A stretch of 63,513 nucleotides of DNA, filler included. It is 4 parts of 4 records of this genome, joined end to end, with 100 filler letters (N's around TTAATTAATTAA, not from the genome) between each part and the next. Parts side by side here need not be neighbours in the genome. Positions count along the whole stretch, not along the records: positions 50,356 to 63,513 come from DRR378314_886; 3 more parts are not named here. One strand, written 5' to 3'. The first letter of the stretch is position 1. Every line of letters starts with the position of its first letter. The notes beneath the pieces are model-generated. The model worked only from the letters and a program-made list of their open reading frames with translations. It was not told where the DNA came from and made no database searches. Shown piece by piece: positions 8,861-63,513 of this stretch. A program made the translations under genes and the position numbers.

Positions 8861-8866
8861 AGGAGT

Positions 8867-11276: not shown

Positions 11277-11350
11277 AAGGGAAAGCTCCGGTTTGGGTCC
11301 TGTGCCTAAGGAGGTAACCTGCGCCCCCTCAAAGGACAAGGGAGGCATGT

Positions 11351-11379
11351 AAAAAGGGCGCAGCCTATGCCGCGCCCCT
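11351..11379 (-). terminator. Rho-independent terminator of the DUF2125 gene
   Basis: Minus strand GGGCGCGGC-atag-GCTGCGCCC followed by TTTTT. Confidence 0.75.
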
Positions 11380-11414
11380 GTAGCAAATGCAAAGTTTTGC
11401 AGCTGCCGCGCTGG

Positions 11415-12947: not shown

Positions 12948-13103
12948 GGGTAATTCCTTTTGGCAATGTCTGCGCAAAGTCTTTGAAAGGCTGGACAAGG
13001 TCAAGCCATGTGGTCGGGGGTGGACCAATCTTCGGCAGAACACTACCACATAGGTCAAGGAAATTGCAAAAAGCTGCACAGGCAATAAAGGAAATACCGC
13101 ACC

Positions 13104-13853
13104 ATGGATATGCAGAACAAGACCGTCATGATCACTGGCGCAAGCCGGGGCATCGGAGCCGAGGCCGCGCGGATTTTTGCCGAGGCAGGGGCGAATGTGG
13201 CCTTGCTGGCCCGCTCCGAAGGGGCGTTGAAAGAATTGACCGCAGAGATCGGCAAAGCCGCCATCGCGATTCCCTGTGACGTGGCCAATTACGCCGATAT
13301 GGCAGCGGCGGTGGAAAAGACCGTGCAGACCTTTGACGGTCTGGACGTGCTGATCAACAACGCCGGTGTGATCGAACCTGTGGCGCATCTGGGGGATGCT
13401 GACCCTGATGCATGGGGGCAAGTGATCGACATTAACCTCAAGGGCGTGTTCAACGGCATGCATGCCGCTTTGCCGGTGATGAAGGCCAAGGGGGGTGGAT
13501 CAATCCTGACCATTTCATCCGGTGCCGCGCATGGGCCGGTAGAGGCATGGAGCCATTATTGTGCGTCCAAGGCGGCGGTGCATATGCTGACCAAATGTGT
13601 GGATCTGGAAGAGGCCGAAAACGGTATCCGCGCCATCGGCCTGTCACCGGGCACGGTCGCCACCCAGATGCAGCGCGAGATCAAGGCATCGGGCATCAAC
13701 CCGGTCAGCAAGCTGGCGTGGGAGGATCACGTGCCTGCGGACTGGCCTGCCAAATGCCTGCTGTGGATGTGCAGCCCTGAGGCAGACGGTTTCAAAGGCC
13801 AGGAAATCTCGCTGCGCGATGAAGGCATCCGCCGTGCGGTGGGCCTGACGTGA
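13104..13853 (+). CDS. Short-chain dehydrogenase/reductase
   Basis: TGASRGIG, NNAG, YCASK. Confidence 0.93.
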   Translation: MDMQNKTVMITGASRGIGAEAARIFAEAGANVALLARSEGALKELTAEIGKAAIAIPCDVANYADMAAAVEKTVQTFDGLDVLINNAGVIEPVAHLGDADPDAWGQVIDINLKGVFNGMHAALPVMKAKGGGSILTISSGAAHGPVEAWSHYCASKAAVHMLTKCVDLEEAENGIRAIGLSPGTVATQMQREIKASGINPVSKLAWEDHVPADWPAKCLLWMCSPEADGFKGQEISLRDEGIRRAVGLT

Positions 13854-14461
13854 TCGAGCTGCATAAGGACGCGGATGTCTGGACGGTAACAATCAATCGG
13901 CCCGACAAGGCCAATTCGTTGACCCATGCGATGCTGGCCGAACTGGCCGAGATTATGGAAAGTGCCGGATCCGCCCGTGCTGTGATCCTGACCGCTCGCG
14001 GTAAGGTATTCAGCGCCGGTGCTGATCTGGAAGAAGCAGTGGCGGGGCTTGCAACCTCTGACGTCTGGGAACGCCTATCCGGGGCTATCGCCGCCTTGCC
14101 GGGGCTGAGCATCGCCGCACTGAATGGCACCTTGGCAGGCGGGGCCATGGGCATGGCGCTGGCCTGCGATCTGCGTATCGCTGTGCCGGGTGCAAAGTTC
14201 TTTTATCCGGTGATGAAGCTGGGTTTTCTGCCGCAACCCTCTGACCCCAAACGCATGGCGGCGCTGATTGGCCCGGCGCGGACCAAGCTGATCCTGATGG
14301 GCGGGCAAAAGATTGAAGCCCCAGAGGCGCTGACCTTTGGGTTGATTGACCGGATTGTTGACGGGGCGGATTTGCTTGCCCATGCACAGGAGATCAGCGC
14401 CCTGACCGTTGCGGCCAAACCGGAGATTGCTGCCGAAATTAAACGGATGTGTAACCCCTAG
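13850..14461 (+). CDS. Enoyl-CoA hydratase/isomerase family protein
   Basis: INRPDKANSL, FSAGADL, GGAMGMALACDLRIA; GTG start overlaps the SDR stop. Confidence 0.9.
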   Translation: MIELHKDADVWTVTINRPDKANSLTHAMLAELAEIMESAGSARAVILTARGKVFSAGADLEEAVAGLATSDVWERLSGAIAALPGLSIAALNGTLAGGAMGMALACDLRIAVPGAKFFYPVMKLGFLPQPSDPKRMAALIGPARTKLILMGGQKIEAPEALTFGLIDRIVDGADLLAHAQEISALTVAAKPEIAAEIKRMCNP

Positions 14462-14532
14462 ATCAGCGGCACAAATGGCACGTCACAAGCGGCAAGGACC
14501 AGCAGGGCGGAAAGGGTCAGGAGAATACGCAT
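14458..14532 (-). CDS. Putative 24-aa micro-lipoprotein MRILLTLSALLVLAACDVPFVPLI
   Basis: GAGG RBS 6 nt before ATG; basic N-region, hydrophobic core and LAAC lipobox; TTGACG -35-like hexamer upstream; too short for the ORF track. Confidence 0.7.
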   Translation of the reverse strand: MRILLTLSALLVLAACDVPFVPLI

Positions 14533-14685
14533 CGATTGCCTCTTTTTTGTTTTTCGCCACTCTCTGCTCTGGGGCAAGGCGCGTCAAGACATCGCCCGGC
14601 CACAACTTGCGCGGTTTTTCGGGCAAAACCGTCGGTATATCGCAAAAAACTTGAACCTTGGGCCCAAGGCAGGCAAGAGCATTGC

Positions 14686-14785
14686 NNNNNNNNNNNNNNN
14701 NNNNNNNNNNNNNNNNNNNNNNNNNNNNNTTAATTAATTAANNNNNNNNNNNNNNNNNNNNNNNNNNNNNNNNNNNNNNNNNNNN
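14686..14785. other. Artificial contig linker
   Basis: N44-TTAATTAATTAA-N44 (stops in all frames). Confidence 0.99.
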
Positions 14786-15170
14786 TCAGGCGCACACAGC
14801 GTTCCTGATCGCACAAATTTTCCGAATGCATCATCGGCAGATAAAAGAACTGCCGCGCTGGTTCATCGATCTTTAAATCCCAGCCCTTGTCGACTGCACA
14901 TTTGGCTGCTGCCAGCGCTGCCCTGTCCGATGCGAATGCCTGTTTGCTGCCCCGGAACATGTTACGAGGTAACTGATCCATAAGGATAATATAGGCCAGC
15001 GATCCGCTGGGATAGGTCAGCCAAAGCGAGAACTTCCCCTCGCCTGCATCCTTCCACATTGTAAGGAATTTATCCCGGATTCGCGCATCCAGCGCTTCAT
15101 CCTGTAGGTACCACCCCTCGGGGCCAACCTCATCTAACCAAAAACTCAATACTTCTTCAGGACCTGCCAT
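14786..15170 (-). CDS. DUF924 family protein (3'-truncated)
   Basis: EVLSFW, IILMDQLPRNMFRG, RQFFYLPMMHSE. Confidence 0.9.
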
Positions 15171-15277
15171 TGCCCTAGACTCCGTAATTGCCCTCCCCAG
15201 GACGTAACGTCATTAAAATCTCTTTTACAGATTTGTGACAGTAACATATTGCAACACAAAAGTCACAATTGCGTCGC

Positions 15278-16549
15278 TTAGGTGAGTTCTTGCGCATCCT
15301 GCTCATCCTGCGCGGCCTCAATCGCGACTTCTTGCGCGACTTCAAGCGCGACCAGCGAAGATGTCGGATAGAGCGGCGCAATTGTCCCGGTCTCATCCAC
15401 AGGTGCGTAAACGCGCTGGGTCATCCGATACGCGGCATACAGGGCCATGATGAACATCAGTACGGCAATGAACAGGAAAAAGCCCCATGGACCGATAACC
15501 CCGGACCCCATCAGCCATCCAGTGATAATCGGCCCTGCGATCGCGCCAAGACCATTGATGAAAACCAGCCCCCCTGACGCCGCCGACATATCGTCATACT
15601 CCAGATAGTCATTTGTATATGCGATCAGCAGCGAATAAAGCGGGCTCGTCATACCGCCAATAATAAAAGCCGACACCAACAGCATGGGAAACGTGACACC
15701 CAGCACAATGCCAATCACGGCCCCAACGCCGCCAACAGCGGCAACCGACATAATCAGCAGGCGGCGATCCATTCTATCGGACATCCAGCCGAGCGGATAT
15801 TGCAGCACGACTGCGCCGATATAAAACGCGGCAACAAAGGTAGAAATTTCAACCAGGCTCAGCCCAACCTGGGCGCCATAGACGGCGCTCATACCGAATT
15901 GCGCCGAGAATATTCCGCCTAACAAAAACATGCCAACACAGCCCAACGGTGATGTCTCCAACAATTTGCGCAGGGTCATCGGCTTGGTGGTGTCGAATGC
16001 GGGTGTGGGAGAGATCGACAGCAAAATGGGTCCGAACGAAATCGAGACCAGGATCGATGCGATAACAAACGTCTCATACCCGGCAGGGTCACCGACCAGC
16101 AAAAGGGCCTGCGCGCTCACGACACCCGCCATCTGCACTATCATGTAGAGCGACAGCGCCTGCCCTCGGTTCTCGTTGTTGGCCGCGTTGTTCAGCCAGC
16201 TTTCGGCTGTCACATACACGCCCGAGAAGCAGAAACCGATAATCACGCGGCCCAGCGACCACGCGATTGGGTCGGTCAGCATCGGATACATGATCATAAC
16301 GGCCGAGATAAACGAAGCCAAAGCCGCGAACACGCGCACGTGGCCCACGCGCCGGATCATCTCGGGTGCCAAACGCGAGCCGCCGAGAAAACCCAAAAAA
16401 TAAGCCGACATGACAAAGGACATCTCGAGGGTCGAGAAGCCCTCGATCTCGCCGCGCACGCCCAGCAACGTGCCTTGAAGGCCGTTGCCGACCATCAGCA
16501 ATCCCATTCCCAGAAGAAGCGCCCAAGCGCTGGAAAGAACCTGAAGCAT
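15278..16549 (-). CDS. MFS transporter (YcaD-like)
   Basis: 12 hydrophobic segments; IRRVGHVR, ESWLN, NRGQALSLY, GWMSDRMDRR. Confidence 0.92.
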   Translation of the reverse strand: MLQVLSSAWALLLGMGLLMVGNGLQGTLLGVRGEIEGFSTLEMSFVMSAYFLGFLGGSRLAPEMIRRVGHVRVFAALASFISAVMIMYPMLTDPIAWSLGRVIIGFCFSGVYVTAESWLNNAANNENRGQALSLYMIVQMAGVVSAQALLLVGDPAGYETFVIASILVSISFGPILLSISPTPAFDTTKPMTLRKLLETSPLGCVGMFLLGGIFSAQFGMSAVYGAQVGLSLVEISTFVAAFYIGAVVLQYPLGWMSDRMDRRLLIMSVAAVGGVGAVIGIVLGVTFPMLLVSAFIIGGMTSPLYSLLIAYTNDYLEYDDMSAASGGLVFINGLGAIAGPIITGWLMGSGVIGPWGFFLFIAVLMFIMALYAAYRMTQRVYAPVDETGTIAPLYPTSSLVALEVAQEVAIEAAQDEQDAQELT

Positions 16550-16654
16550 AATGCCTATCCAAGTTGCCGACGTGTTTTGTTCGCTTTGCGATCAATTCCT
16601 TCCCGCGTCGCGCCTGTCTACGACATTGTCGGGGCGCGGATGAAACAGATGCGA

Positions 16655-17701
16655 CTAAGGGATCAACAAAGACGCATCGCCATATGAGAAAAAGCGATAT
16701 TCACCCGCGATGGCATGATCATAAATTGTATTGACCTGATCCTGCCCCATCAGTGCCGAAACCAGCATCAGCAAAGTGGACTTCGGCAAATGAAAGTTGG
16801 TCATCAGCGCATCGGTGACGTGAAATTCGAAACCGGGATAGATGAATATGTCGGTCTCACCTTCCCACGGTTCGATCCGTCCCCCACGCGCCGCGCTTTC
16901 GATCAGGCGCAGCGCTGTCGTTCCCACCGGGATGATCCGCCTGCCCTTCGCCCGGGTCGCCGCGATCTCAGCTGCGGCCTGCGCGCTGACGCGACCCCAT
17001 TCGGCGTGCATCTTATGTGTGGTTACGTCTTCGACTTTGACCGGAAGAAACGTGCCAGCACCTACATGCAGGGTTACATGAGTGAATTCGACGCCGCGTT
17101 CCGCCAGCGCGTTCAACAATGCATCGTCGAAATGCAGCGACGCCGTAGGCGCCGCAACAGCACCGGAGTTCCGCGCCCAAACGGTTTGGTAATCGGTCTT
17201 ATCCTGCTCATCCACCGCGCGTTTTGCAGCAATATAGGGTGGCAACGGCATTGCGCCTGCCCGCTCCAATGCGCGGTCAAAATCCTCTCCGGTCAGATTG
17301 AAACGCAAATAGGCCTGACCATCGGCGACACGATCCAAGGTCGCGCTCAGATCATCCGAAAACACGATCGCCTCTCCGGGTTTGACCTTTTTCAGGGGCT
17401 TGATCAGCGCAGCCCAGCAACCATCGGATTGCGGGTCAAGCAGCGTTGCTTCTATCGCAGCGGAAACAGGGCCCTGCGCACTGTCGCGATGGCGGCGGCC
17501 ACTCAGCCGCGCAGGGATTACGCGGGTGTCGTTCAACACCAGACGATCACCTGGCTGCAGTATGCCCGGCAGATCGAACACATGCTGATCCCGAATGGTA
17601 TTTCCTTGCGCAACCAACAGCCGCGCTGACGAGCGTGGATTGGCAGGCCGCGTGGCAATCAAGTGTTCGGGCAGGTGGAAATCAAAATCGCTAAGTTTCA
17701 T
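16655..17701 (-). CDS. queA: S-adenosylmethionine:tRNA ribosyltransferase-isomerase
   Basis: [58 protein letters not shown]. Confidence 0.97.
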
Positions 17702-17745
17702 GGCCGCGCCATACATCGGCCCGACAGATTCGGCCACAGCCCAGA

Positions 17746-20700
17746 TCAGCGATCTTCACCCCGCGATTGCACGGCCGGATGCGGTTGGCCAGATCGGTCG
17801 GGCGTGGCATTGGGGCCATCTGAAACGGTTGGCGCCGGTTCACGCAGCAGGTTGCGCAGAAACAGGGGGGCGAGGCCCGACAGCGGATTGACCGACACCC
17901 GCGGGTCCGCCAACGGCCCGGTCAGTGTGTAGTTGAAGGAAAAAATCCCTTCGCCTTTCTTGGTTATCACACTGCCAATCGCATTCAAAAGATAGATCGG
18001 TGAGATCGCGCCGCGCAGATTTAACATCCCCGCGACCGTATCGACCGTGCCATCAAACGACAGGCCCATCGAGGGGCCAACCGCGCTGCCGCTCAGCACC
18101 TTCACCTCGGTCGGAGTAATGCGCATTTTGCTGTCGATGGCTGAAAAGAAAATACCCTGCCCCGCCATTTCATCCAGCAACCCAACCAGACTGATCGCGT
18201 TCAGCAACGCCGCCATGGCTGGTGCGTCCGTAATCCGCGTATTCTTGATCTTCAGGTCGACATCGTAATTTCCGGGCTCGGCAATGGGATCAAGTTGCAA
18301 CTGCATGGAACCGCCTCGCGCTTGTGTCAACACTCCGGCTGAACGCAGAACAGCCCCCGCATCGTCCGAAGTCAGTCCAACTGCGGTGCGACCATCGCGC
18401 GGCGTCACCTGTCCGTTTATGCGCGCGCCACCATTCACCTGTGCGGCGAAGGGGCCCGTCAATCCGCCTGTGGTTTGGAATGACCCGGTCAGCCCTGTTA
18501 GCGCCACAGTCTCGGTAACCTGCAACCGGTCCAACGCAACGTCGAGTTTCGGCCCTGGTCCACCCCCCCCACCACTGTCGCCACCGCCCTCGCCCAGCGT
18601 AGATTTGCCAAGATCAAGGACGCCGCCCAGCACCCGAATATCTGGTAAAGCCGAACCGCGCCCGATCAGTTCGGCAGGAACAGCCAGCCAATTGCCTAGT
18701 TCGAATGAACTGAACCGCACACGATCAAACGCACCATCGCGGAAGGAAATGGAGGCCGAGGTACGCAAACCAGCCGTATCAATCCGCAGCGCATCGACGC
18801 TAAGCTGCGCGCCCAGCGTCGCCTCAGCCGTCAGGGTACCGCTGCTGTTACCACCTTTGCGCCACCCAAGCTCCGGGATAGCCAACGCAACCCCCACCAG
18901 GTCTGATTGCGCGTTCAGGCGCGGCGGCTCACCCGCACCGATGCCTAACGTGAAATCTGCCAGCCCCTGCCCGGTTAGCATGCCGTTGGGCAGTCCGGCA
19001 TTTATCTGTTCCATCAGTCGTGGCGAAAGTTCGATCTGGCCAGTTAGCTCACTACGTTGCGGCGTGTCGCCCCCGATCGGCTGGCGCCACGAGGCCTGAA
19101 CCGGGACGACCCCAAACAGCCCTTCACCTTCAATGGCGACCTGCGTCTGATCTCCGCTCAGGTCCAACTGGTCGGCACTGACTTCGAACCCCGGCACCAG
19201 TTTGTCGCTGTCCAAATTGGACAGCTTGCCTGAAAAGTGAAACTGCGTGTCTTCAAGTTTTAGCCCCTTGATCAAGGGCAATGACAAAGTACCGCCCAGG
19301 CTAACCTGACCGTCTGCGAGTTCGACCGGAAGATTGGCCTTGGTCAGCAATTGCAGGGGTGGTCGGTCCAGAAGAGACAATGCAGCGGTCACGCTGCCCT
19401 TTGCCTGCACCCGGGCAATACCCGGCGTAGATTTCTTGATTCGAGTGTCCGGAATGATAAACGAGGTACCCGAAGCATCGACTGCCCCGCCTTCATCCGC
19501 GATCACAATTCCCTTTTGCGCCGAGACCGTAAATCGCCCGTTCAGCAGGCTGGCCTGCCCCTGCGCATTTTCAATGGGCGGCAGGGTCTTTGCAAACCGG
19601 ACCTTGGTGTCTTCAAAATCGAAATCCACATAGATGTCGGGCTTTTCACCGGGTCGCAGGCGCAGGGCGAAATCCAGATCTGACATTTCACCATGGTAGA
19701 GGTTCTCGGTCACCCAAAGGCGCGGTTTCGGGGCTAGCCGTTCGGGCCAGTAGTTCAACAGTTGATCAGATTTCATCTGATCAATCTGCGCATCAATTTC
19801 GGCGACCCAGCCTTCGGACAACCCGGCCAGAGACCCGCTCAGACGTGCACGATGCGAGCCATCTTCGACCGTCATCTGCCCCAATTGCATCCGAAACGGT
19901 GCCAGTTTCATCTGGAAGTCCACATCAGCCCGCGTCAGGTTCAGCGCTTCTGGGAACAGATTGGCCGGATTGACCTCGATCCCGCTCAGGCGAAACTGTC
20001 CAGACATGCTGTCCAACGCGCCAGCTTTGATCCCCTGAAGGAAAGCCTTGCCATCGGCCTGCACCCTGCCCCAGGCGGAACTGATTGAGACCTCGTTGAA
20101 ATCCAGCGCCTGCTGTATTGGGTCGTAGGTGAAATAGGTGCGCGCTGAATCAAACTTGATGGGCGTTGTCTCGGGCGTCGGCTGTACCGCACCTGCGCCA
20201 AGGTTTAGCGTGGCGAAGACCGGCCCCAGCGCTCCGTCGGCGTCAATGCTTCCGCGCAACGCACCAGAGATGGGCGTTCGCAGCACCTGCATCCATGCCA
20301 GTACCGGGCTGTGACCGGCAATATCTTCCGCCGGTAGATCAGTGATCGACACACCAAACCGAGCGGCAAGGCTGCCCAGCGAACTGGTATAGTTGGCCTC
20401 GATTGTGCTGACGAAATCCCGCCCGGCCAGAACCGAGAAGTTGGTGGCCAGGCGAACCTCGCCCGCGCTGCGAGTGGCCTGAATGCGACCGCCGTCCAAA
20501 ACCCAGGATCGGCCCAAGCGCAAGTCCTGATAATCCAGAGTGATTGCGTCCAGTTCGACAGAACTCAGCGCCGACAAAGCCGGTGATTGAAATACCTCAT
20601 CCGATCTTTCGATAAGCTGCGCAAAGTTCGGGGCCTGGCCAACCGGCGCACTGCCGGCACCAACGGTCAGTGTCAAAACCCCGTCCAGGCCCCTGGTCAG

Positions 20701-21141
20701 CGCTATTTGCGCCCCTTGCAGGATAATGCGTTTTGGTCGCACATGACCACGCAGCAGTGGCCGCATCGACAGGCTGGCGCGCAGGTCCGACACTTCGGCA
20801 ATCTGCTGACCCGCAGCGTCACTGATGCGGACATCCGTCAGGCGCATTCGTGGGCGCCAGCCTTCGTGCACGATAAAACTGACGTCGCCGAACCGCACTT
20901 TCACGCCGCCCAAAGCTTCGTCAAGGCGCGTCTCAACGCGGTCACGCAGCCATGCTGGCGCGTGCATCCGCTGACCAATCACCATGAAACCGGTTAGCAG
21001 CGCCAGAAAGACCAGCACAAAGACACCGCGCATGGCCCACAACCCAGCTGTCCGGCGGCGCGATCGTCGGCGGGGCTTCTTGCCCGTCTCTTCGTCATCC
21101 TGCTGTTGTTGCTGGACCAATTTGCGTCCCACGCCTTTCAA
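17746..21141 (-). CDS. AsmA-like / YhdP (DUF3971) envelope protein
   Basis: 1131 aa; N-terminal TM, beta-rich body, AsmA-type C-terminus [26 protein letters not shown]; start uncertain. Confidence 0.85.
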
Positions 21142-21201
21142 CCTGCTATTGGCGCCCTATGATAAGCGGCAACCTTCAATCTTCTCAATCGGAGTAGGAA
21201 T

Positions 21202-21627
21202 ATGCCCGAAATCTCAGACATCGCACCCGACTTTACTCTGCCCCGCGACGGCGGCGGCGAGGTGTCCCTTTCGGAACAACGCGGCCACGCTGTCGTCCTG
21301 TTTTTCTATCCCCGCGATGATACGCCGGGCTGCACCAAGGAATCCATCGGATTCTCAGAGCAACTGCAGGCATTTGCGGATGCTGGCGCTCACGTCTTCG
21401 GCATCTCACGCGATACCGTCGCCAAGCACGACAAGTTCGTTGCCAAGCACGGACTGACCACACCGCTACTGTCAGATGATGGCCAGACCGTGTGCGAGGA
21501 ATATGGCGTTTGGGTCGAAAAGAACATGTACGGGCGTAAATCAATGGGTATTGAGCGTTCGACCTTTCTGATCGACACAGATGGCAAAATCGCCCGTGTC
21601 TGGCGCAAGGTGAAAGTCCCCGGTCAT
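21202..21627 (+). CDS. bcp: Peroxiredoxin Bcp/PrxQ (3'-truncated)
   Basis: APDFTLP, FFYPRDDTPGCTKE, GIERSTFLID. Confidence 0.93.
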
Positions 21628-21727
21628 NNNNNNNNNNNNNNNNNNNNNNNNNNNNNNNNNNNNNNNNNNNNTTAATTAATTAANNNNNNNNNNNNNNNNN
21701 NNNNNNNNNNNNNNNNNNNNNNNNNNN
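21628..21727. other. Artificial contig linker
   Basis: N44-TTAATTAATTAA-N44. Confidence 0.99.
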
Positions 21728-50255: not shown

Positions 50256-50355
50256 NNNNNNNNNNNNNNNNNNNNNNNNNNNNNNNNNNNNNNNNNNNNT
50301 TAATTAATTAANNNNNNNNNNNNNNNNNNNNNNNNNNNNNNNNNNNNNNNNNNNN
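50256..50355. other. Artificial contig linker
   Basis: N44-TTAATTAATTAA-N44. Confidence 0.99.
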
Positions 50356-53300
50356 CACCTGATAATCCTTTGTATACCTCCTTGTCACATCCACACATTC
50401 CTCCGTATTCGTTGCGATGATGTAGGTAAGCTTTTTCCCCCATCCAGCTTCGTATGTGAAGGGACAGTCGTAGATATTTTCGCAGCAGTCCGTGTGCACC
50501 CACGCGTTCTTTTCAGTCGAGAACACCTGGTCGTCAAGCATAGTGATGGGGCAATAAACCTCCAATCAACAAGAATGCCGAGTGAGACAGTGGGAGCCGA
50601 ATAGGACGCGCAGCGCCTTGACCCCAAACACTCACGGTACTCTTGCGCAGACGAAACCGAGAGACGCCGCGCGAAGTGTACTTCTTGCGCCTTGATGAGC
50701 GTTTGTGTGCTCTCCACCGCATTTTCCGTCCCAAGGGGACATATTCAGCAAATAGATTCGTCAGGAAGTGTCCAACCTTTCCCCATCCAATATGCCTAAC
50801 ACCCGTGCAACAGAGCTTCGGCCAGCTCACGCGCACCTCGGTCCACACGTGATCGGTCCAGTCATTCACGAATCGCGCGTCGATTCCGAGTGCGCGGCAG
50901 CAGAGGGTGAACACCTGCGCCCACTCCCCGCAGCGCCCGCGCCGCGTCTCCAGCAAAACCCGAGCATCGTTGTACCGCGGGAAACGGACAATACTACTAC
51001 ACTTCGTGCACTGGTATACTTCAACGCGCGATGCAAGTCCTTGCTGCTCGTGCGGGGTCGGCAGTGCCATTCCGATGGCCTGCGGGACAGTGCAAGCCGG
51101 AAGGAGCGTAGTGGTGTGAGTGATTGTGCGTTGCGCGGCGAGTCCGCGCCATTGACCGCTCGGCCTACTTCCGCGGAGGAGAAAGCTGCTCCTCCATTCT
51201 CTGCTTCCCGAGACGCCCCCCTGTTCAAAAAAAGAGCAACTTCCAAGTGTGCAACCCGATTCTTTTAAGTTTGTACGCATCCGCAACTACGCTGCGCCAA
51301 TGCTGCAAAAAAAGGGTCCGCACGTTTCGCGTGCTCACACACCACATCGCACGCAGCGCAACAGTAGAAGACACTCACGTCTCTACACACATTCCTTCCT
51401 TACAATTTGCGGCAAGGAGAGGCCGCGTGACTACGAAAGTATAGGATTATAAGACTTGCGAAGAAAGACGGCGTTTCTTGCGAGATCTCCTCCATTGTTT
51501 CCACTGCCACGGTCGGACCTTTGTGGCTCCTTCGCAGCTCCAGCAAGGAGGCTCATTGACCCATTGGAAAAAATCCTCCTTGAACCATCGCAGGAGATCC
51601 CGCGTAAGGTCATCACTAGATAAGGAACCCGCGCTGCAATACGGGACGGCGAAATGGGAAAAGAGTGAGATGAACTCATCAACTGTGGCTCCGACGAGTG
51701 CGACAGATCAGCGTGCGTTAGCTGCACTCGAGACGAAGACGTATCAAGGATGCCGAGGCGACACATGGAATGGAACAAGAGAAAGCAAACCAGCTTCAGA
51801 AAGCTATATCATATGTGCACGCATGTGTCATTACCGTACCGAAAAGCGTTACCCTTCTCCACGAGGTCGGCCGGCATAACGGCGCGGGCGGATACGTGCA
51901 GAGTTGGATCCTCGTATTGTCGGAACTGCTGAATCTGCAAGGGCAACAAAAAATAATAATAAAGCGAAACCATGCAAGTACGAAGTGTTACATTAACGGG
52001 TTATTGGACTATGGCCCTCTGGTTTTACTCTAGGAAAGCGGAGGCGCACGTTTGCATCGCGTCGCATTTGCACAGTCTTGGTGCTCTTCCTGTAACGCAC
52101 CGCGCCGTCGATTCGCCGCTGCATTTGGAGTTGCTCCTGCGACTGCAGCTCGCCATGCGGGACGCGCCTGCGGCTGGAACCAGCAGCACTGCGGGCAGCG
52201 TTGCTCTACGGTATGCAAAATACACAGAGAAAACGAGTGATGGAGGTATTGAGTCAATGGTTTTCACGCAGAGTCTCGCGCTGATGCATTGTCCGTCCCA
52301 GAGCCGAGCCGGCAGCGCACGAGCGTGCAACAGTGGTCCCCAGCCCTCTAGCAGCGGTGTTTGTGTTCGACCTGCTGGCTTATCGCGTTTGGCACAAACA
52401 CTGGAAGAGTTCCTAAAACCAATGTATGCGTACATGCGACCATGTCACGCTACTCATGAAACGTACCAAAGCTTGCTGCCGAAGGCGATGCCGAACAGCG
52501 TTGAGAGAGAGGCGAAAAGCTGCCGCCGATATGCGCGTCGCGCGGCGCTCTCCGCTGCGACCGTTCGCGTCCGCTGCGCCGCGCCAATCAGCACAGCGAC
52601 ACAGGGATACATCCCGTTCCAGGAACGCAAAATTTGTCGCTCGTCAGATATATTTTTAATAAAAATATTGTTGGTGTGTATTGGGATCGGAGAGCGAGCT
52701 TGTGTTCCTGCGTGTGCGCGAGGGAATCGGCGACGAGACCGGAGCGCCTCCGAGTGCACAAGCGATCGCAGGCGCGCGCCTTTCATGTTCTACGCAGTGA
52801 CGTACCGCACACTCGCGGAGCGTCCGCTGCCCTTCTGCGCACCCGCACCGTTTGCGACGCCGTGCGCAGCGCGTCCGCAAGAATTGTAGAATCTGTCGCT
52901 TCAAATGACATCCCTGCACAAAAAAAAAATCGTAACGGCACTACGCCTGGGCCTTACAGAGCTTCACAGGGAGCGCGTCTACTCCTCCGCGTTTCTGGTA
53001 GAATGCAGCAGGCATTTCGCTGGTGCTGCTACTGCTGCTCCCAGCGCAGCGCTTGCGTACCCTCAACTTCTTGCTCCGCCACAGGAATACCCGTCAGAGA
53101 CTCGAGCTGGATCTTGAAAATTTCAACGAACCCATCTATTTCGCATTCAATCTCACTGGACTGCGTAATGAGCACCCCGGAGTACAGTAGGGAGACGGCA
53201 ATTGGGGTTTCCGAAGCCACAAAGCGGAGCAGTGTCGGTGCGCCAACGCCAGCGTACGCTGCAGCGGTTCCGCATTGCGAGCATTCTCACACTTCCTTCT

Positions 53301-53370
53301 GCCACTGGGTCTTTCTCTTCAACGCAAGACTATTGTACGAAGAGTTGGTTTGATGAATCAGGAAAGACAT
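50356..53370 (-). CDS. PNG1: Peptide:N-glycanase, multi-exon, 3'-truncated, with N-terminal ubiquitin-like domain
   Basis: Spliced exons give [91 protein letters not shown] introns; 5' exons tentative. Confidence 0.9.
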
Positions 53371-54431
53371 TTGATGATACGAGCGCCTTTTGTTCTCTCT
53401 ACGGCTCGGTAAAGTGCGAGCCACGCAGCACCCAACAAAGCTCATGTACCACTCCTTCCGTGGCGACGATGCAAGGCCTTTGCTTCGCTGTTGCTCCGCC
53501 GAAGCCTCAAACATATTGTGCCAACACACCTCGTCGTCCCATTCAACCCGTACGCGCATTCTGCGGCAATCCTGTTTCGCGACACGGTGGGAAGCGACCG
53601 TTCAGCGCGTGCAGGTTTCTTTCCCCAATGCACCGTGCAGTGGCTCGCAGTACGCCGGGCAAGGCGAGCCCGCAGACTAGGGTGATCGTAATGGGAGCGG
53701 GGACACGAAGAAGGGGAAGGGTATAACGTCTGCCCTGAGCGCCTGGCGATTTCGGACGTGCGCATTGTATTCCAATCACTGGGCACTGCAAGCACACGGC
53801 GCGAAACTGTTGCCCGCAAGGCCAGAGAATTCAGGCACACAAACACGACATCAGATTTTTTTCACCCCCTAAACCCCAGGAATCTAGCACTCCTGGCACG
53901 TACTGCATCGCAACGCGGGGCAGCAGCGCAGAAGTGCTAGAGGAATGCCGTGTGGAAGAAAAAACAACCACGATTGGCCACGCTTTGGAAACACTCACAG
54001 AAAAGAGATTGTTCATACTGAAATACGCAACAGAACAATAGTGGTAGTGAAAAAGTAAAGGAAAGAAACCACCCGCGCGAGCGTTCCCCCCATGTACTTG
54101 CGCAAGCAAATCGCCGGGAGAAAAACGCTGCGCATGCACACAGAAAATAATGTTCATCTATGTGCAAGATTCCCACCCCGCAGAGAAAGCAAAGCAAAGA
54201 AAAGAAAGATCAACACCCACCCCACCCCCCAAGGAAGCGCAACGAAGCACCGCCTTTGAAACGTGCTATGCAAGCACATCTGTCACAATCCTTTTGTTGA
54301 AGCGGAAGGAGCGGCCCGTTGTCGGAGACAGGCAACCTGTTTGCGCTCGACGATGCCAACAGCGTTATCGTTCGTCGGCTGTCCGGCAATGCCGCTGTTC
54401 AAGACAGAAATCCGCTTCGGCAGAAGCCCTC

Positions 54432-56451
54432 CTACTCGTTGAAGGGCGGGAAGAGAATGCCCGAGTCAGGGCAACTCCATCCGTTGGAAGAAGGGCAGTC
54501 CTGCAGCTGCAGATCCGGGGAAACGCAGAGCTGCACAGCGGAAAGCTGCTTCTTGCCATCTTTGGACTCGGTGCACTGAAGCACCGCGGTAGGGAACGCA
54601 GACTGCAGGGGGTTCAGGAAGTCTTCCTGCGAGTATTCCTTCGTCCACGACGGCGTCACACCGGCATCGGAGAGAATCGAAACCAAATCGATCTTCTCGC
54701 GAAGTGAGAGAACAAAGTTGAAGTACTGGCGCTCGCTGCTGAGCGAAGACAGCGCGCAGGTTCCGTGCTTCTCCCACTCGTGCGTCCAGAACGACTCATC
54801 CGGGCCGGACAATGACGGCCAGTACTCGTTCAGCGACGTCCGCAGATCTGCACATGACACAAGCCAATCGCATCCACGCCTCTCTGTCAGCGATTCCGTG
54901 TGAAACATTCCGTCTTACTTCCGCTCTAGTTCCTAGGTGCTCCAAGCAGATGGTTTGTGGCCGAAAAAGGCCCTCGCACGAAGAGCTTTACGCACCGGAG
55001 ATCTTCGAGTAGTCAAACGGCATCGACTTGTTGCAGAACGACGGGTAGCTGCCATCGTTGTAGTTCGGCCACAGCCCGTCTGCGTTTGCAAAAAGTGGCA
55101 CCGCACATTCCGGCGCACAGCAAGTTAGTCCACGTTCTTGTCTGCAGAAACAGCGAAATACATACGCACTACACCGCAAGCCTGCTCCATGGTACCCATC
55201 ACCAAAGGTATGCTGCTGACGATTCAACGATGCATATGGAGGAACAGCGCGCTGCGAACAAGCTGTCGCTTCTGAACGTGAACGTACGGACAAGGAATCC
55301 ATCCACCGGGTGAGGGCTGCACATCGTTGGTTTGTACAAACACAAGCGCAGAAATAAACCTTGTTACAACTTGTGCAGCAGAGAGCACTGGAGCATGCTT
55401 GGAAAGGGAGCAAGCGGGGGGGGGCGTTCCAACGGCGCGGGAAGCGGCGCGAACGCTTTCGCGGGGCCGGCGAGGCTGCACACAGCTTCTTGTCGAGGGT
55501 ACCCTGGATTTCTCCGAGGCCCCGGACAAGGGAGCCAGATACCCGCGGAGCCAAAGGCCGGCGGGTGCGCGACAGGCACGGCCCCGCACAGCAACGAACG
55601 CCGCACGCTAATTATCGCTCAAAATACCACCGCTATCGAATCGCGAATATACGTATGCATTCACGATATACCAAGCATTGGTAGAAAGAGCCTGACGCTG
55701 ATCGGCAACGCGCAAAAGGACGACAGCAGCCACAGGGGGCACCACCGGCTCCTGCCAGTAGCCTGCCGCTCGGCATGCGAGACGCCAAGCGAGAGGAACG
55801 CCAGCTGAACGAAAACACCGTAGTCCCACCTTGCTAGCGCGCATAATAAGTCCCTCAGAGGTGCGAAGCTAGTACGAATAGGATGTCAACACCATTATTC
55901 TGATAGAGCTAATATTCAATCATCACCGGGACTTATTCCGCGCGCAGGGGAACACTGGGCTCGTCCAGCGCAAAGCGGTCGCAGGCACGCATTTGTAGCA
56001 CCATGGCGCCGACTGCCGTCGTCGCCGGACTGCTACTTGGTATTCTACCGTGGCGCGGTTCGCCACATCACATCTCTTATATCCGCCCCGATTACTTGGT
56101 CGGCCTAGCTCCACAAGCGAAAAAAGTACGCAGAATGTAACACAGCTTCGGCGCAAAGGCGGCGACCTTGTCCGCACCGCGCAAGCTTCGCGAGCGTTCG
56201 GCAACGTCCTCCGCCTGTTGAGCGCGCGAAAAAGGGGCCCCTCTTTCGCGTAGGGCGACGCCGAGGCCACGTGAGCAGCGCACGCACCTTGGTACCGTGC
56301 AGCCCTGGCGAGTATTGCAGTACGATCCTGGCCAGCCCTGCACAAAGAGCATGTAATCAAAGTTTCCTTCGAATGCACCGCTCTTATGGTGATAGGCGCT
56401 GGAGGCAGCAAAGACTGCAACAAGAGCAAAGACAACCGCCGTGCGCGACAT
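54432..56451 (-). CDS. Secreted ribonuclease T2; exons 56451-56288, 55316-55288, 55079-54996, 54847-54432
   Basis: Signal peptide, FDY.LFVQGWPGSYC, CAS I FLVHGLWP, CAS II FWTHEWEKHGTC; all introns GT-AG and in phase. Confidence 0.93.
55845..55937 (-). ncRNA. Intronic box C/D snoRNA with two rRNA guides
   Basis: 10-bp terminal stem AATAAGTCCC/GGGACTTATT, C box GTGATGA, D' CAGA, C' GTGTTGA, D CTGA; guide TATTAGCTCTA is complementary to conserved 18S UAGAGCUAAUA. Confidence 0.88.
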
Positions 56452-56893
56452 GGTGGCTTGGGAGGGCCTGGGAAGGCGGAGGAGAGTGGTGTCTCTTTCG
56501 GGCAGGATAATCCTGACACCAAACGCGCGGCGCCACGCGCCGCACGCCATGGCGCGGATTCAACACTAACCCTACACAACGTGGACGGCGAGCGGAAATG
56601 ATACACAGACCCCTACATAGCCTAAACCGCGACGGTAGTTGCACGGCACTATCGATCAGGCTTAGAATGCACGTCTTACAAGTAGAACAGGCCAGATCGT
56701 GACTTGATCACACTTCTTTCTCTTGTGACCAGCAGCGGCCGCAGCTCGTCCAGTGCGTGCGCATTGATTGCTGCGCTAGTCAGGTGGTTGTCACAGAGCG
56801 CCAGCGGAGGCAGCAGCGCCGGCAGCAGGCGTACCGGTTGGGATTCCGTTGCGTGCGCTCACCAAGAGAGCCAGTGCGGCGCCTAGAGGCCCT

Positions 56894-59800
56894 ATGGAGG
56901 TTTCTTATCGTTCTTTCCTTGACTGGTTGAGTCTGTACGCACTGTACGGGATTGAATGGTGCTGCGCCGTGCTCGAAGCCCGGCTCGGCTGGGCGCCGCC
57001 TGACGACGTGCACGCGCGTGCGCAAGGTTTGTTCTTAGCGTCCATGGCACTTCACTGGAACGCTGCCGAGGTTTCGAGCGGTGTGGAAGTCAGCCCATTG
57101 GTTTTTCGTCTTCGAGCGTCAGCTCGCTCTGTTTCAGGCGTAGAAGCATATCATGCATCACGTGCGAAGCTGTGGAGGAAAATAGGTTTCGTATGCCTCC
57201 TTCGCTCGTTTCGTCGTGTCTTGTGCGCGCAGCTTCCGTGCCTTCGAACGACACGTCCAAGTTAGGACGGTCGCGCCGTGGTTGCACGCGTGCAGTACTT
57301 TCGCCATGCACCGCTTTTGCGCGATACCCATTCTTGCTCCCAGTGGCCGTGTGTTCTGGAAGGCACCGCGCTAGAAAACCTCCGTCGCACGTCGTTGCAG
57401 GGTGAAAGAGTGTGTCGTGTTTGTCCTGCCTTGGAGCGAAATGCTCCTCGCTTTCTTTTTCGCTATCGCCCCGCCGCTCCGGCTCGTGCGGAGGAGGAGC
57501 GGCGGGTCGCGGCAGCTGTTGACAGGGCTGCGCAGTGAGGTGGTGCACCGACCTCCGGCGCCTCGGCCTCGCCGCGCTCCGGCAGCGACGAGGCGCGAAA
57601 CCCGCCGTTCACTGCCTCACCAAGGGAAAGCGGAAACCCCAGAGGATATCGTGATACACTGCATGCTCTTTGAGAACGACATGGGCGCATGTAGCGGTCT
57701 CCTTGGCGCCCTTGGCGTTTTCGCGAGGTTGTAACGCACGCGCCTTCGCAGCGAAAGCCTGCGCGTCCTCGTTGCGCGCCTGTATCTCTGTCAAACCGCA
57801 CTACTGCCCGCAGGCTCACTCACTGCTATTGCGCCTAAGAATATTCATGTTTTCCTCGCCAATCTATTTCTATTATGACAATGAGACGAGTTGCGGGGCT
57901 TTTCACCACCTTGTTTCTACCCTCTCCAACGTTGCCCTGACGCTTGTGCGGCATTGTTTTTGGCTTTTCGTGTTCTCCCGTGCGCGCTGGCGTGCAGCTG
58001 AGCTGCATCTTCCTAAGCTCGCGCCTCTTCCGCACGGATCTCGCCGTCTTGTGCGTGGTGTAAAAAAGGTGCGTAGGCAACTCAATCTTTCTTGTCACAT
58101 GAAACGGTATCCTGCGATGTAGCTTTTGAACACTTGCTCCTTGCGAGGCCTCACGTGGAGGAATGGTTGTGGCCGTCGGCAAACTCCCGTTGCCTCCTCA
58201 CTGCCGCAGACGCTCGTGATCGACCTGGACGAGACGCTGGTGCACTCGACACTGCAGCGTCCTGGTACGTACACCTGTGTCGCATGCTCCTAATCTTGCA
58301 CAGTTTCCATCTCTTTGGTTGACAAAACGAGATAAAGAGGAGAAATGTGCAAGGAATAGCTCGTGATCTGACGCGAGGCGCAGCTATGTTGCCAGAGGTT
58401 GTGCTCTTCGTGCAGCTCCGCAAGTCTTTCTTCGTTTCTCCCTCCAGTGTCGGTGCCTGCCTTTGCTGATCCTAACTTTCCTTCCGCGCTACCGTTGACT
58501 GTATATGGAACACCAGGCGGAAGTGACACCACGGGATCCGACTTGACTGTGACACTGCAAATTGACCATGCACACGTGTCGTTTGATGTTCTCAAACGGC
58601 CGATGGTCGCTGATTTTTTGCGGCAGGTACGCAGTCACCGCTTTGCGCCAACCTTCCCCAGCAGCGGGGAGCAGTCCCCAGCGGATTCTCCACGCGCGGC
58701 TATTTGTCCAAGTTGCGTCCCGCCGCATGCGCACTGGATCTGCCTGTTGTGTAAACAGATACTGCACTTAGTGTGCGTAGCGCGAAGCTCGCTCGCTGTT
58801 TTCTTGGCGGACAGTTCGCGATGCGATATATGTCTCGTCGCGCGTGCTCGGCTTCCTATGGTAGCGCGTGGAACCGCACGAACAAAGCTCTTCCCGCCCC
58901 GCCCCGCGCGCACCGACGTTACCGCGGGTGTGATCATCGGGTAGAGTCCCAGTAACTTGGTTTACATCCGCAAGAAACTTGCCATTCTCTGGGTATGGGT
59001 ATCATACCGCTTTGTGCGCGCGCAGGTGTCGCAGTGGTACGTACTTGCGGTCTTTACGGCGAGCTTGAAGCCGTATGCGGAGCCTATCATCGGTACGCTC
59101 GCTGCATGCGGCGCGGTGGAACCAAGCAAGAGCCGCCACACTCCAAGCAATGGTCGTTCCCGCGTTCCCTGAACGTACGAATACTGGATTGGTTTGCTGC
59201 GGCTTTCTTTTGGCAGATTCTCTGGAGGATAGCGTAGGAACACCGCTGAGCTCAAACCCGGTGTTTACGAAACGACTATTCCGTGATGTACGTTGCGCGT
59301 CGCCTGCCGGCGCGCATGCGAATGCTGCTCAGCAGCGCTGTGCGTTTGCATAGAAAGAGAGTGCTGCTCACAAATCTGATGCAAAAGAAATCGTATGCGA
59401 TTTTTGTGTGGTTCTGGATTCGGTTTGGTAGTAAAATCGGGCTCTGTCGGCGGAAAATCTTCTACTGTGTCGCACAAACGCTGGCTCTGCCCGCTAAAGC
59501 AATGCTCCTCGACTGTGCTCATAGTGCTTATATGTGCGGCGCACCTCGCTCTTTGAAACGTTACCGTGGAATCTGTCGCGTGTACGCAGCATTGTACGGG
59601 CATTAAGGGCGCGTATGTCAAGGATCTGAGTGTGCTTCGGCAGGACCTCGCGCGCGTGCTGATCATGGATAACTCGGCGGTTGCTTTCGCAGCGAATCCC
59701 GATAATGCTGTCCCAATGAAAGCGTGGTATGGCAGTGCATCAGACTACACGCTGCGCACTGCGCTGCCATTTTTAGATGCTCTAAGGTTCGTTTGTGTGG

Positions 59801-60137
59801 GCGTGGGCGAGCTCGATGAACTGCACAAGGACGCAATCTCTTCTTGGCATTGGTGTTAGCATCTCCTCTCGGCGCTGGTGAATCTTCTCCTGGACGAGAA
59901 AGGTACATGGCTTTCGGCCCGCGGTTCTCGATACGCTGTACTAAACAAAAACCACGCTGGCGAATAGTGCGTGGCACTACGGACCGGACAAGCGTGCTAT
60001 CTGTTTCGCGAGACAAAAGATTAAGTTACAGACTCGCTTCCGTCCACCTTTTGTTTTCTGTTCCGTACACTTCCGTCTCACTCCGCTGCAGTTTTGTGGA
60101 CGACGTTCGTTCGATCTTGAAGCTGCGTACGACATAG
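56894..60137 (+). CDS. NEM1: NEM1/Dullard (CTDNEP1)-like FCP/SCP HAD phosphatase, multi-exon
   Basis: Exons encode KK|TLVIDLDETLVHS, KRPMVADFL, VFTAS..YA, RLFRD|HC, YVKDL, IMDNS, LPFLDALR|FVDDVRSIL; N-terminal exon structure uncertain. Confidence 0.85.
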
Positions 60138-60932
60138 TTATACCTCTTCCTTTGCACGCCAACGGGCGTCTTCTTCTCAATCTGTGATATAAATATTTGC
60201 GCATTTTATAGTCTCTCAGAAGCTGTGGTGTAGCCTTCGTATAAATCTTCCTATATCTATCGTGCCAGCGCACGGTGTTATTGTTTGCGCTGGGCAGTGT
60301 GTTTTTGCGCGCTTGTCGCGTTTGAATGCTGCTACGCGTCACGCAGCAAGGCAGTGCCGGCAAACGCTATCAGTGTGGCCGCGTAGAGGAAGAGATTCTG
60401 TGGTCTCCTTTTCTTTGAAGAGTCTCTCACGGAGAAAAAGAATAAAGCGCGGTGCTGGGGTTCCCAACAGCGTTGCGCAAGCTGCACGGCACTGCGCTCT
60501 GCGACGCGGCGCGGCGCGACAGGAGCCCAGGTAGCGATGCTCCGCTTAGTGGGGCTGAATTGCTACAACCACACGGATGCACAGAACGAACCAAATGCAG
60601 GTGAAATTGCAATATGTATATCACATAAGTTAAAAGACCATTACCTCTGTACTCCACGCGATATTTTTTGTTTGCCGCTGCACTGCTGCTCCTGCGGCAG
60701 CGGCCGCACTGTGCTGCTTTGCTGCTCGCGTGCACTCGGGCGGACGCGATTCTTTGCGCGTTGCACTGCTGCTTCGCAGTCCACTTCTGCGGCCCCTGCT
60801 GTGCTCCTGGCCCAGCATTTCCGCTTCGTATCCCCGCTCGTGCCTTAGAGGGAATACAAACGCTCCTTTGAGGAGCCCTTTCATTCTCTCTCCGCAAGCG
60901 TCGCATCCCGAGCGGGTCGCGCAAACGCAGCA

Positions 60933-63347
60933 ATGCACTCGTCGCACGTGTCGCAGTTCTTTGTCATCTCCTCGCGCGGCGACACCCTCCTCTCACGAGA
61001 CTGTACGTTTCCAGAGCCACAGCTTCTATTTCGCCATGCACGTTTGCGAGTATCATTGTCCCAGACGCGAGTAGAGCTCAAAGTGGGAACGTGCGATGCT
61101 ACGCGTGGATTTTAGGTCGGGCTGTTCGCTGCGCGTCAGCGGCACGAGCGCGCTTTCGGGCTGCTGGCGCGCGCCGCGCAGCGCGCTTGCCAGTCGCGCG
61201 CCAGGAGCCGCGTCCTGCGCACCCCGCGGCTTCCCTGCGTGCTGCACCCGCGAGCCGCACAGACAAACGAAAGGACTTCGAGCCAACACGAGAAAAACAC
61301 GCTATCATAAAGATAATTTGGTACCATAGACATCTATTGATAATTTGTATGCATGGGTTGCGCTGGAATGGCCGCTCGCGCGGCGTTTTTGGAGCATTGG
61401 GCGGCGCGTTTGGTCGCAGAGGAGGGGTTTCCCCCGTGCGGAACTGGTCCAGCTGTCCCGCGCCAGCTTTGCGCTGCCGTGCAATCGTGTATCCGTGAAT
61501 CTCCAACGTACCAACAACTTCCCCGTGAATGTTATGCGTACATCCGTAAAACAAAAGTTCGTCTGTCATTCACCGCGGCTGCGCCCGTAGAATGCCCATA
61601 TTGGTCCTCTGCGGCCTCGTTCTCCGCCAGCGCGGTCGGTTTCGTGAGTTGTCACAGCGGCGTCGCCGTCGAGCTCGAGCGCTCTCCCTCCTTGTTCGCT
61701 CACGCGCTCCTCTACCCGTTGAACCGGCGTACGCGTGTGCGCACCGCATGAATTGACCTAATCTCTTTTTCTCTCCTGCCTTTGTGATCCATGCCATCCT
61801 TGGCAATTTCGGCGCAGTTCGGGGCGATGTCGTGCGCGGGACGGCGGACATTTTCTTCCGCAAGGTCAAAGAGGACAGCGAGCTGCCTCCCGTATATGTA
61901 CGTCCCTTGCGCGCCTCACGCGTGGCGAACGCTTTTGCCGCTTCGTCGCACCGATCATTCGTTTCTATGGGCAAGCTATCGTCTTTTGAAAGGGCTCCTT
62001 TCTGTGGCCTTCGACGCTTGCACCGGTGCAGAATCTTGACGGACTCACGTTTATCTCGATGAAGCGCGGCGCTCTATACTTTCTCGTGACGACGAACGAC
62101 AACGCTTCCGCGTCGCTCTGCCTCGAGCTCCTTGGGAGAATCGTGAAAGTATTCAAGGACTATTGCGGTGTCTTGTCGGAAGAAGCGATACGCTACAACT
62201 TTGTCCTTCTCTACGAAATTCTGGATGAAATGATTGTACGTGCGCGGGAGATTGAGGCGCGATTCGCCGGTTGCGACGACACTGGGCGTGCGTAGATTCC
62301 CACCTTTTTTCTCTTCTTCTCGCATTGCGCGAGCGCTCAAAGTTGGACGCTGTAGCAGTATTGGGTCCTCTGTGTTCGGTAATTGCAACTGTACAGTGTA
62401 GTCGAGGAGTATCGGATGGAGAAAGCTCTGTATGTTGCGCTTCCTTCCAGCGCGTAACATGGAGTAGAATCGCGCGTCGATCTAGCGCCTGTGCATTTCC
62501 GCATCAACAAGACGCGGCGTTTATCGTTCTCTCTTGCGGCGAGGAAGATCGTCTGCGTTGTCGGTGTCCTGCCTTACATGTGAGAAAGTGTGGCAGTCCG
62601 TTGTGCTTTGTCCGTTGCGACACTGTTCCCCTTTATGCCGCTGACTCGGCTACCGGTTGTCTCCTCTTCACCGGCGCGTATGAACAGGACTTTGGCTATC
62701 CGCAGCTCGTATCCACGGAAATTCTCAAGACTTTCATTCACAATGAGCCTGTTGCTGTGGAAGGTAGTACCGATTCGACCGCCGAGCGGCTGCGGCAGCT
62801 GAAACTCAAGGGCGAACGGAAAACGATTTCGTCCTTGGCCGTCACGAAACCAATCCACACAGGTCCGCGCACAGTGGAATCTAGATGTGATTCATTGGAT
62901 CACCTACGTGTCACCGACTCTCTCAGTCGTTTGTTTTGTTCGCTTTTAGATCCATTGATCCGCGTTGCGTTTGTATTGAAGAATGGCGTTTACCATTGTT
63001 GTTCTTTTCTGAGCGAGAAGTACAGTCGACATATCTGTGTCTCTGCATCGTTCCATGTTGTAATATCAACTTCAGATGTCCTTTGGTGAGTGGAATCCGT
63101 GAAAAACACTCGGGTGATGCAGCTGGCTATTTCTACGAGGATAAAATAGAAGGCGCTGTTTCATTATTGCCTCTCATGCCAATGTCTTTAATGCTTCGGT
63201 TGCCTTGTGTGGTTTTTATTTTTCTATGTGTGCGTTTCCTCTCGCGCAGATCGTGGAAAGAGCCAGACGAACGAGATCTTCTTAGACATCATCGAACGCA
63301 TCAATGTTCTCTTTAGCTCAACTGGATCGTTGCAAAACTACACCATT
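60933..63347 (+). CDS. AP4M1: AP-4 adaptor complex mu subunit, multi-exon, 3'-truncated
   Basis: SQFFVISSRGDTLLSRD|FRGD, FKDYCGVLSEEAIRYNFVLLYEILDEMI|DFGYPQ..STE.LK, NEIFLDIIERINVLF. Confidence 0.88.
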
Positions 63348-63486
63348 GGTTCGTGTGCACCGTGTATAGGCAGAGGAGTATGAAAAGGACTTTAGTGTCT
63401 CATCTCCTTGCGCGATGATCCATCGCGTATTCGGTTTACCTCTATTTTTCTCAGTGATCTGCATCGTTGATCATTTTCTGTCCCAT

Positions 63487-63513
63487 TCTCTCTCTCTCTC
63501 TCTCTCTCTCTCT
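63487..63513. repeat. (CT)n microsatellite at the window end
   Basis: TCTCTC... run to the last base. Confidence 0.9.

Follow-up and report, generated by a model that had tools for sequence, protein, structure and literature searches.

Positions 55937..55845, on the minus strand of the 63,513-nt stretch of DNA analyzed here (the window), very probably encode a genuine and functional box C/D snoRNA of ~85-93 nt, carried within an intron and directed to a target in 18S rRNA. In C/D snoRNAs, fibrillarin 2'-O-methylates the rRNA nucleotide that is paired to position 5 of the guide, and the candidate described below presents a guide ahead of each of its two D-type boxes. Though well formed, it is an unremarkable instance of a kind of gene already known, and neither the snoRNA nor the findings on its host challenge the current understanding of snoRNAs. 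To a eukaryotic contig that was previously unannotated, the analysis adds one well-supported snoRNA gene and two predicted target sites, among them a proposed, possibly lineage-specific methylation site in LSU rRNA.

The provenance of this contig deserves attention at the outset, as the window is a stitched product of bacterial and eukaryotic DNA, a make-up that matters to any reader interpreting the record. Three linkers, each composed of 44 N, a 12-letter spacer with stops in all frames, and a further 44 N, occupy 14686-14785, 21628-21727, and 50256-50355. The piece at 21728-50255 is 97-98% identical to a 4.6-Mb prokaryote (G001), and bacterial genes, those for TldD and YhdP/AsmA among them, lie on the pieces at 1-14685 and 14786-21627; at the DNA level, G001 matches 1-14685 at only ~65%. 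The final 13,158 nt, 50356-63513, constitute a eukaryotic contig with genes for a PNGase/Rad4-type transglutaminase, an RNase T2, and an NIF/FCP1-type phosphatase, together with a fragment of a clathrin-adaptor small chain. A protein cluster search with the transglutaminase exon returned broad eukaryote and archaeal clusters only. Taken piece by piece, the gene content and the comparison with G001 therefore indicate a mixture in which one eukaryote is combined with no fewer than two bacteria. It is the eukaryotic contig that carries the snoRNA, and the G001 genome has no match to the snoRNA region. The preliminary description of this DNA was silent on the joining of bacterial contigs with one eukaryotic contig.

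Read along the minus strand, 55937..55845 follows the canonical layout of a eukaryotic box C/D snoRNA: stem, C box, guide, D' box, C' box, guide, D box, stem. The terminal stem opens with a 5' arm of 10 nt (AATAAGTCCC; 55928..55937), perfectly complementary to 55845-55854, and closes with a 3' arm of equal length (GGGACTTATT; 55845..55854), the exact reverse complement of the first, such that all 10 bp are Watson-Crick. A single G separates the 5' arm from the C box, GUGAUGA (55920..55926; consensus RUGAUGA), which aligns to the C box of SNORD12 and of 12 other C/D models. The spacer after the C box spans 17 nt and ends in the D' guide, TATTAGCTCTAT (55903..55914), which abuts a D' box, CAGA (55899..55902), one base off CUGA and aligned to UCAGA of the SNORD12 model. 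Six nucleotides, ATAATG, then lead to the C' box, GUGUUGA (55886..55892), one base off UGAUGA and aligned to UGuUGA of the same model; both internal boxes are thus present, with CAGA and UGUUGA lying 7 nt apart. A 27-nt spacer follows the C' box and ends in the 13-nt D guide, TAGCTTCGCACCT (55859..55871), ahead of the D box, CUGA (55855..55858), which aligns to CUGA in Rfam models. The C/D boxes and the perfect 10-bp stem had been claimed in the preliminary description, and its letters and coordinates prove correct throughout on the minus strand. When the region is folded as a single strand, the stem is kept and four more outer pairs are gained (MFE -31 kcal/mol, z -2.66), a fold matched by 3 of 200 shuffles.

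The case for an 18S target is made by the D' guide. Positions 2-12 of this guide (55904-55914) form 11 contiguous Watson-Crick pairs with the 18S stretch UAGAGCUAAUA, at a duplex energy of -14.2 kcal/mol, and shuffled D' guides reach at least 11 bp in 57 of 20000 trials. For both guides, pairing was read against the rRNA of eukaryotes other than the source organism. Prokaryote assemblies scanned with an 18-letter version of the stretch yielded at least 52 loci, which are eukaryotic 18S contaminants; among the matches listed, the stretch occurs in 52 of 52 loci, mutually similar and in the same surrounding context, a count that denotes a widespread rather than a universal sequence because the loci were fetched with a pattern containing the target. 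Viral contigs scanned for the same stretch gave three loci, none of them rRNA. In one of the 18S loci, L045, which scores 1800 bits against the SSU_rRNA_eukarya model, the base opposite guide position 5 (U at 55907) is an A at model position 162. The source of this locus, an unrelated eukaryote, provides a complete rDNA unit, and there the 18S stretch is the best match of the D' guide. Across 88 loci (188 kb), it is also the only recurrent all-Watson-Crick match of at least 10 bp to this guide (54 places), and neither guide has any other recurrent rRNA target in that set.

The identity of the target A can be considered in the light of known methylation maps. The human 18S sequence context around A166 agrees with the D' register, and equating the target A with Arabidopsis A162 leans partly on sequence context. 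The character of the DNA might suggest a coccidian source, but coccidian 18S would differ inside the D' target. Table 1 of PMC8053127, in the portion drawn on here, gives Arabidopsis 18S-A162 as an experimentally mapped Nm with SnoR18 as its guide, and a table excerpted from PMC6461891 lists Arabidopsis A162/SnoR18 as the counterpart of human A166/SNORD44. The earlier proposal that the D' guide adopts the register of SNORD44/U44 is upheld by the +5 pairing, which puts an A at SSU position 162, the counterpart of A166. The shared register supports functional equivalence, as distinct from family membership. By this prediction, a guide for the ancient 18S-A162/A166 methylation exists in the source lineage.

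For the D guide, position 5 is the C at 55863. A search of metagenome contigs with the complement of this guide plus five conserved letters returned four loci, of which three are not rRNA. The fourth (L004:183-200) maps to LSU rRNA of a eukaryote, within its 3' end (RF02543, 214 bits, model 2894-3401), where the guide forms 13 of 13 Watson-Crick pairs with L004:183-195. Guide position 5 faces a G at LSU model position ~3093, which belongs to the 3' strand of a helix located ~60 nt beyond the sarcin-ricin loop in the 3' direction. We compared LSUs from eight sources, with L061, L063, and L064 counted once as they share one genome, and with 26 of 36 LSU loci set aside as bacterial or partial, having no stretch from the sarcin-ricin loop to the target. 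The preliminary description had the D guide addressing a G near the 3' end of LSU rRNA, and that much of its claim stands: the target G and the 9-nt core GCGAAGCUA recur across the eight sampled eukaryotic LSUs, the G in all of them; the core sequence after the G is intact in six of the eight, with an N in L068 and one base change in L072. The claim does not extend to the full 13-nt complement, which occurs in L004 only, an environmental LSU retrieved by a search for exactly this sequence. Just 5' of the target G lie four nucleotides that differ among the sampled LSUs together with the helix, and in the seven other than L004 the guide pairs at positions 5-13 only; 9 nt of pairing do not suffice for guidance. 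The duplex has an energy of -23.5 kcal/mol with L004 and of -15.4 kcal/mol with L061.

It is conceivable from such a pattern that the snoRNA is real and expressed, but that only the D' guide functions, the D side being an orphan or aimed instead at an snRNA, a tRNA, an mRNA, or a spacer of the pre-rRNA. Many C/D snoRNAs have a single guide or an orphan guide, which lends this reading some weight, as does the short pairing in seven of the eight LSUs; moreover, no Nm is known at the matching place in yeast or human LSU rRNA. The excerpted portions of PMC8053127 similarly place no mapped Nm in Arabidopsis 25S between C2960 and G3292, which leaves the D-guide site unmatched among the sites known in that species, and an LSU Gm, if true, would be a methylation without a mapped Arabidopsis equivalent. 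Set against these points, however, all 13 nt leading up to the D box pair, in exact register and at a homologous site, with a natural LSU variant, that of L004 (AGGUGCGAAGCUA), and shuffled D guides attain 13 bp in just 2 of 20000 trials. As the four variable positions fall in a helix that covaries between species, a perfect match peculiar to one lineage is plausible.

Weighing both sides, we think it unlikely that the D' guide acts alone, and we lean toward an LSU target for the D guide, which is plausible and specific in register. A bolder proposal, put forward here tentatively, is that the D guide may specify a lineage-specific 2'-O-methyl G just 3' of the sarcin-ricin loop, one that tracks an AGGUG-for-UGCCG variant of the helix; this variant is so far seen in one environmental LSU.

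Beyond the guides themselves, the setting of the snoRNA within its host gene bears on its expression. Splicing was read from the contigs of a single public run (X1, whose kind is uncertain) placed on 53800-57200, and all features of the gene lie on the minus strand. The coding part of exon 1, from the ATG (56288..56451), encodes an N-terminus resembling a signal peptide, along with the first portion of the RNase T2 domain. It is followed by intron 1 (55317..56287; 971 nt, GT..AG), exon 2 (55288..55316; 29 nt), which supplies part of the first catalytic motif, intron 2 (55080-55287; 208 nt, GT..AG), exon 3 (54996..55079), intron 3 (54848-54995; 148 nt, GT..AG), and exon 4 (54432..54847), which runs through the stop codon. 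Three joints in the spliced contigs define these boundaries, each CT..AC on the plus strand and hence GT..AG on the minus strand, at depths of 510-529; the joint across intron 1 links 55316 to 56288 at a depth of 510.7. Parts of introns 2 and 3 are without contig cover.

The spliced CDS of 693 nt yields 230 aa with one stop, which is terminal, and its frame contains both RNase T2 catalytic histidine motifs, HGLWP and HEWEKHGTC, with inclusion of exon 2 making the frame read ...FLVHGLWP. A hand-built gene model, in which exon 2 began from ~55142, put Asp where the catalytic His belongs; the spliced contigs overturned and corrected it, their 29-nt exon restoring the histidine. That second exon was also missed by the preliminary description. 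Among profile matches, PF00445 scores 108.6 bits on exon 4 versus a cut-off of 26 (E 5.4e-31), and falls under the cut-off on exon 3 (24.2 bits, E 4e-5) and on exon 1 (17.8 bits, E 0.0039, profile positions 1-23); compared with proteins, the last exon gave one of 17 candidates at E<=0.001, 36% identical. The assertion that the host is an RNase T2 gene is borne out by the match on this last exon, as is the placement of the snoRNA in the first intron, on the strand that carries the gene, by a spliced joint that skips 55317-56287 between GT..AG ends.

The snoRNA lies 350 nt into the intron, and a further 528 nt separate it from the intron's end. Because the joints are GT..AG and the 230-aa frame is open, transcription of intron 1 has the same sense as the snoRNA, although contigs of this kind cannot reveal a discrete ~90-nt RNA. 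One of them is unspliced and covers the whole of intron 1, snoRNA included (55289-56317, depth 18.5), with two single-base differences that both lie outside the snoRNA. Vertebrate intronic C/D snoRNAs have an optimum at ~70-80 nt from the 3' splice site, whereas the distance here is 528 nt. The sections of PMC9465071 drawn on here describe intronic snoRNAs of apicomplexans and, outside vertebrates, host genes of many kinds.

Comparison with curated families places the element within the C/D class. At gathering thresholds, Rfam has no match anywhere in the window. At E<=10, 55600-56200 returns 16 matches, 13 of which are CD-box families; each of these 13 falls on the minus strand and within 55846-55936. 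The leading model, SNORD12 (RF00581), is aligned over its full length (1-90 of 90) at 29 bits (E 8.5e-4), below its gathering score of 43, and every other Rfam score is likewise sub-gathering; across the 13,158-nt eukaryotic contig, the SNORD12 match is the only one at E<=1 (E 0.019). Since these alignments agree in the boxes and stem and not in the guides, the element resembles the C/D class at large and no one curated family. A check against the SNORD44 family, as the preliminary description had suggested, was negative: RF00287 is missing from the 16 matches at E<=10, and gathering thresholds give no match either. No orthologue of 55937..55845 was found, and a literature search met no text that prints the guide-plus-box strings. 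The literature on Toxoplasma and Plasmodium snoRNAs and on RiboMeth-seq offered nothing specific, and the excerpted text of a Cryptosporidium paper does not mention SNORD44, U44, or snoR18; in both cases supplementary tables may list relevant snoRNAs.

Rfam scores under gathering, degenerate internal boxes (CAGA, UGUUGA), and a location far from the 3' splice site might together suggest a decaying or silent snoRNA-like relic that forms no stable snoRNP. Such a relic would be expected to lose some of its features, but here neither the C box nor the D box is damaged, all 10 bp of the stem pair perfectly, and both guides are unbroken and in register. The host intron is, moreover, transcribed at a high level, and the hallmarks of a retroposon are missing, as the element is single-copy within the window and has neither an A-tail nor a duplication around it. 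We accordingly regard a relic as quite improbable, and a functional snoRNA as the better account of these features.

The arrangement of motifs is likewise one that chance would hardly produce. When the 13,158-nt eukaryotic contig was scanned, on either strand, for RUGAUGA...CUGA at a separation of 45-140 nt and flanked by a terminal stem, 55937..55845 emerged as the sole site, and among 300 dinucleotide-preserving shuffles of the contig, stems of at least 5 bp arose in 15, of at least 6 bp in 7, and of at least 8 bp in none. Although the boxes are just 4-7 nt each and a C...D pair with a 5-bp stem does occur in shuffled DNA at the rate given, a chance constellation of short motifs in intronic sequence is scarcely credible when the real stem of 10 bp exceeds the 8 bp that no shuffle reached, and when C'/D' boxes accompany two rRNA-complementary guides that shuffled guides so rarely equal (57 and 2 of 20000 trials).

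How might a functional snoRNA emerge from this intron? The 10-bp terminal stem would bring the C and D boxes together into a kink-turn, which in turn would recruit Snu13/15.5K, Nop56, Nop58, and fibrillarin, with the snoRNP assembling on the C/D kink-turn either in the pre-mRNA or in the excised intron. Exonucleases would then trim the debranched intron while the C/D proteins protect the ends of the RNA. We infer from this architecture that the product accumulates as a small RNA, is bound by these proteins, and guides methylation at both sites in the source organism. The D' guide would pair with 18S rRNA and direct 2'-O-methylation of the A that corresponds to Arabidopsis 18S-A162 and human 18S-A166, and the D guide would most likely pair with the 3' strand of the LSU helix, leading to methylation of the G just before CGAAGCUA. 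External stems reportedly allow splicing-independent snoRNP assembly in mammalian cells, and the long perfect stem, with its outer pairs, may suit a snoRNA located far from the 3' splice site. The significance that the preliminary description attaches to an RNase T2 host is speculative, and so is the further idea that residence in such a gene might couple the output of a guide for rRNA modification to that of an enzyme degrading rRNA.

Several known snoRNAs provide points of reference for the gene described here. Like it, the box C/D snoRNA SnoR18 of Arabidopsis carries two guides, one of them for 18S position 162, but the second guide of SnoR18 is directed to 25S-A2935 (Am2935), and that of the present snoRNA to a G near LSU model position 3093. 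Plant snoRNAs are found mostly in polycistronic clusters, whereas this one is alone in an intron. Vertebrate SNORD44/U44 (RF00287, 18S-Am166) has the same predicted site in the same +5 register and is also intronic. U44, however, is ~60 nt long with its guide upstream of the D box, in contrast to a snoRNA of ~91 nt whose corresponding guide precedes D' and is joined by a second. The hosts differ too: U44 resides in GAS5, a non-coding snoRNA host gene, and the snoRNA here in a protein-coding RNase T2 gene.

In overall form, the closest Rfam likeness is to SNORD12/SNORD106 (RF00581), in which the stem, C, D', C', and D all align over the full length; the guide regions do not match, and the resemblance is one of generic C/D architecture rather than family membership. 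In the use of its guides, the present snoRNA finds a parallel in the nucleomorph of the cryptophyte Guillardia theta, where GtNM-R11, in the excerpted table of PMC6461891, directs its D' guide to SSU-A162 (equivalent to human A166/SNORD44 and Arabidopsis A162/SNOR18). The two are thus alike in reaching SSU-A162 from a D' guide, and on the entries drawn from that table they part company in that GtNM-R11 is nucleomorph-encoded with further predicted LSU-A targets, whereas the site proposed for the snoRNA here is an LSU-G.

The window holds three artificial linkers (14686-14785, 21628-21727 and 50256-50355), each a 12-letter spacer with stops in all frames set between two runs of 44 N, and it is therefore a concatenation of separate contigs rather than one molecule. 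Several organisms are mixed within the record. Positions 21728-50255 are 97-98% identical to a 4.6-Mb prokaryote genome, whereas positions 1-14685, which have a higher GC content and give matches of only about 65% to that same genome, belong to a different bacterium. The gene content of positions 14786-21627, with YhdP/AsmA genes, is bacterial, and positions 50356-63513 form a eukaryotic contig that has spliceosomal introns. A non-axenic or contaminated assembly is the likely cause of this mixture. In a species-representative collection of prokaryotes, eukaryotic 18S rDNA contigs likewise occur in no fewer than 52 assemblies or MAGs, one of which (G007) carries at least 16 copies of an LSU 3' end.

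On the eukaryotic contig, a Rad4/PNGase-type transglutaminase gene lies on the minus strand at 50356-51286, truncated by the contig start, and the plus strand carries a NIF/FCP1-like phosphatase gene of several exons (about 58123-59856) and a clathrin-adaptor small-chain exon (about 61990-62292). Neither a scan for C/D boxes with a terminal stem nor an Rfam search of this contig revealed further snoRNA-like elements in the introns of these neighboring genes.

The RNase T2 host gene includes a 29-nt micro-exon (55288-55316, minus strand) that was detected through spliced contigs only. An ORF-based model lacking this micro-exon placed Asp at the position of the first catalytic His, a misleading hint of an inactive enzyme that the spliced contigs overturned. 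Relative to the window, the unspliced contig from X1, a public sequencing run covering this locus, has A>G changes on the plus strand at 55670 and 55695, both intronic, with zero differences in the exons or the snoRNA. Editing is the less favored explanation because the change on the RNA strand would be U>C, and the two differences look like strain polymorphism.

In the environmental LSU rRNA 3' end that pairs with all 13 nt of the snoRNA D guide (L004), roughly the first 70 positions (1-70) align poorly to the Rfam model, and in the sarcin-ricin loop stretch AGAACGAGAGGAAC (about 124-137) the consensus U is replaced by A. L004 may come from a lineage that has diverged, or it may be an rDNA copy that has degenerated.
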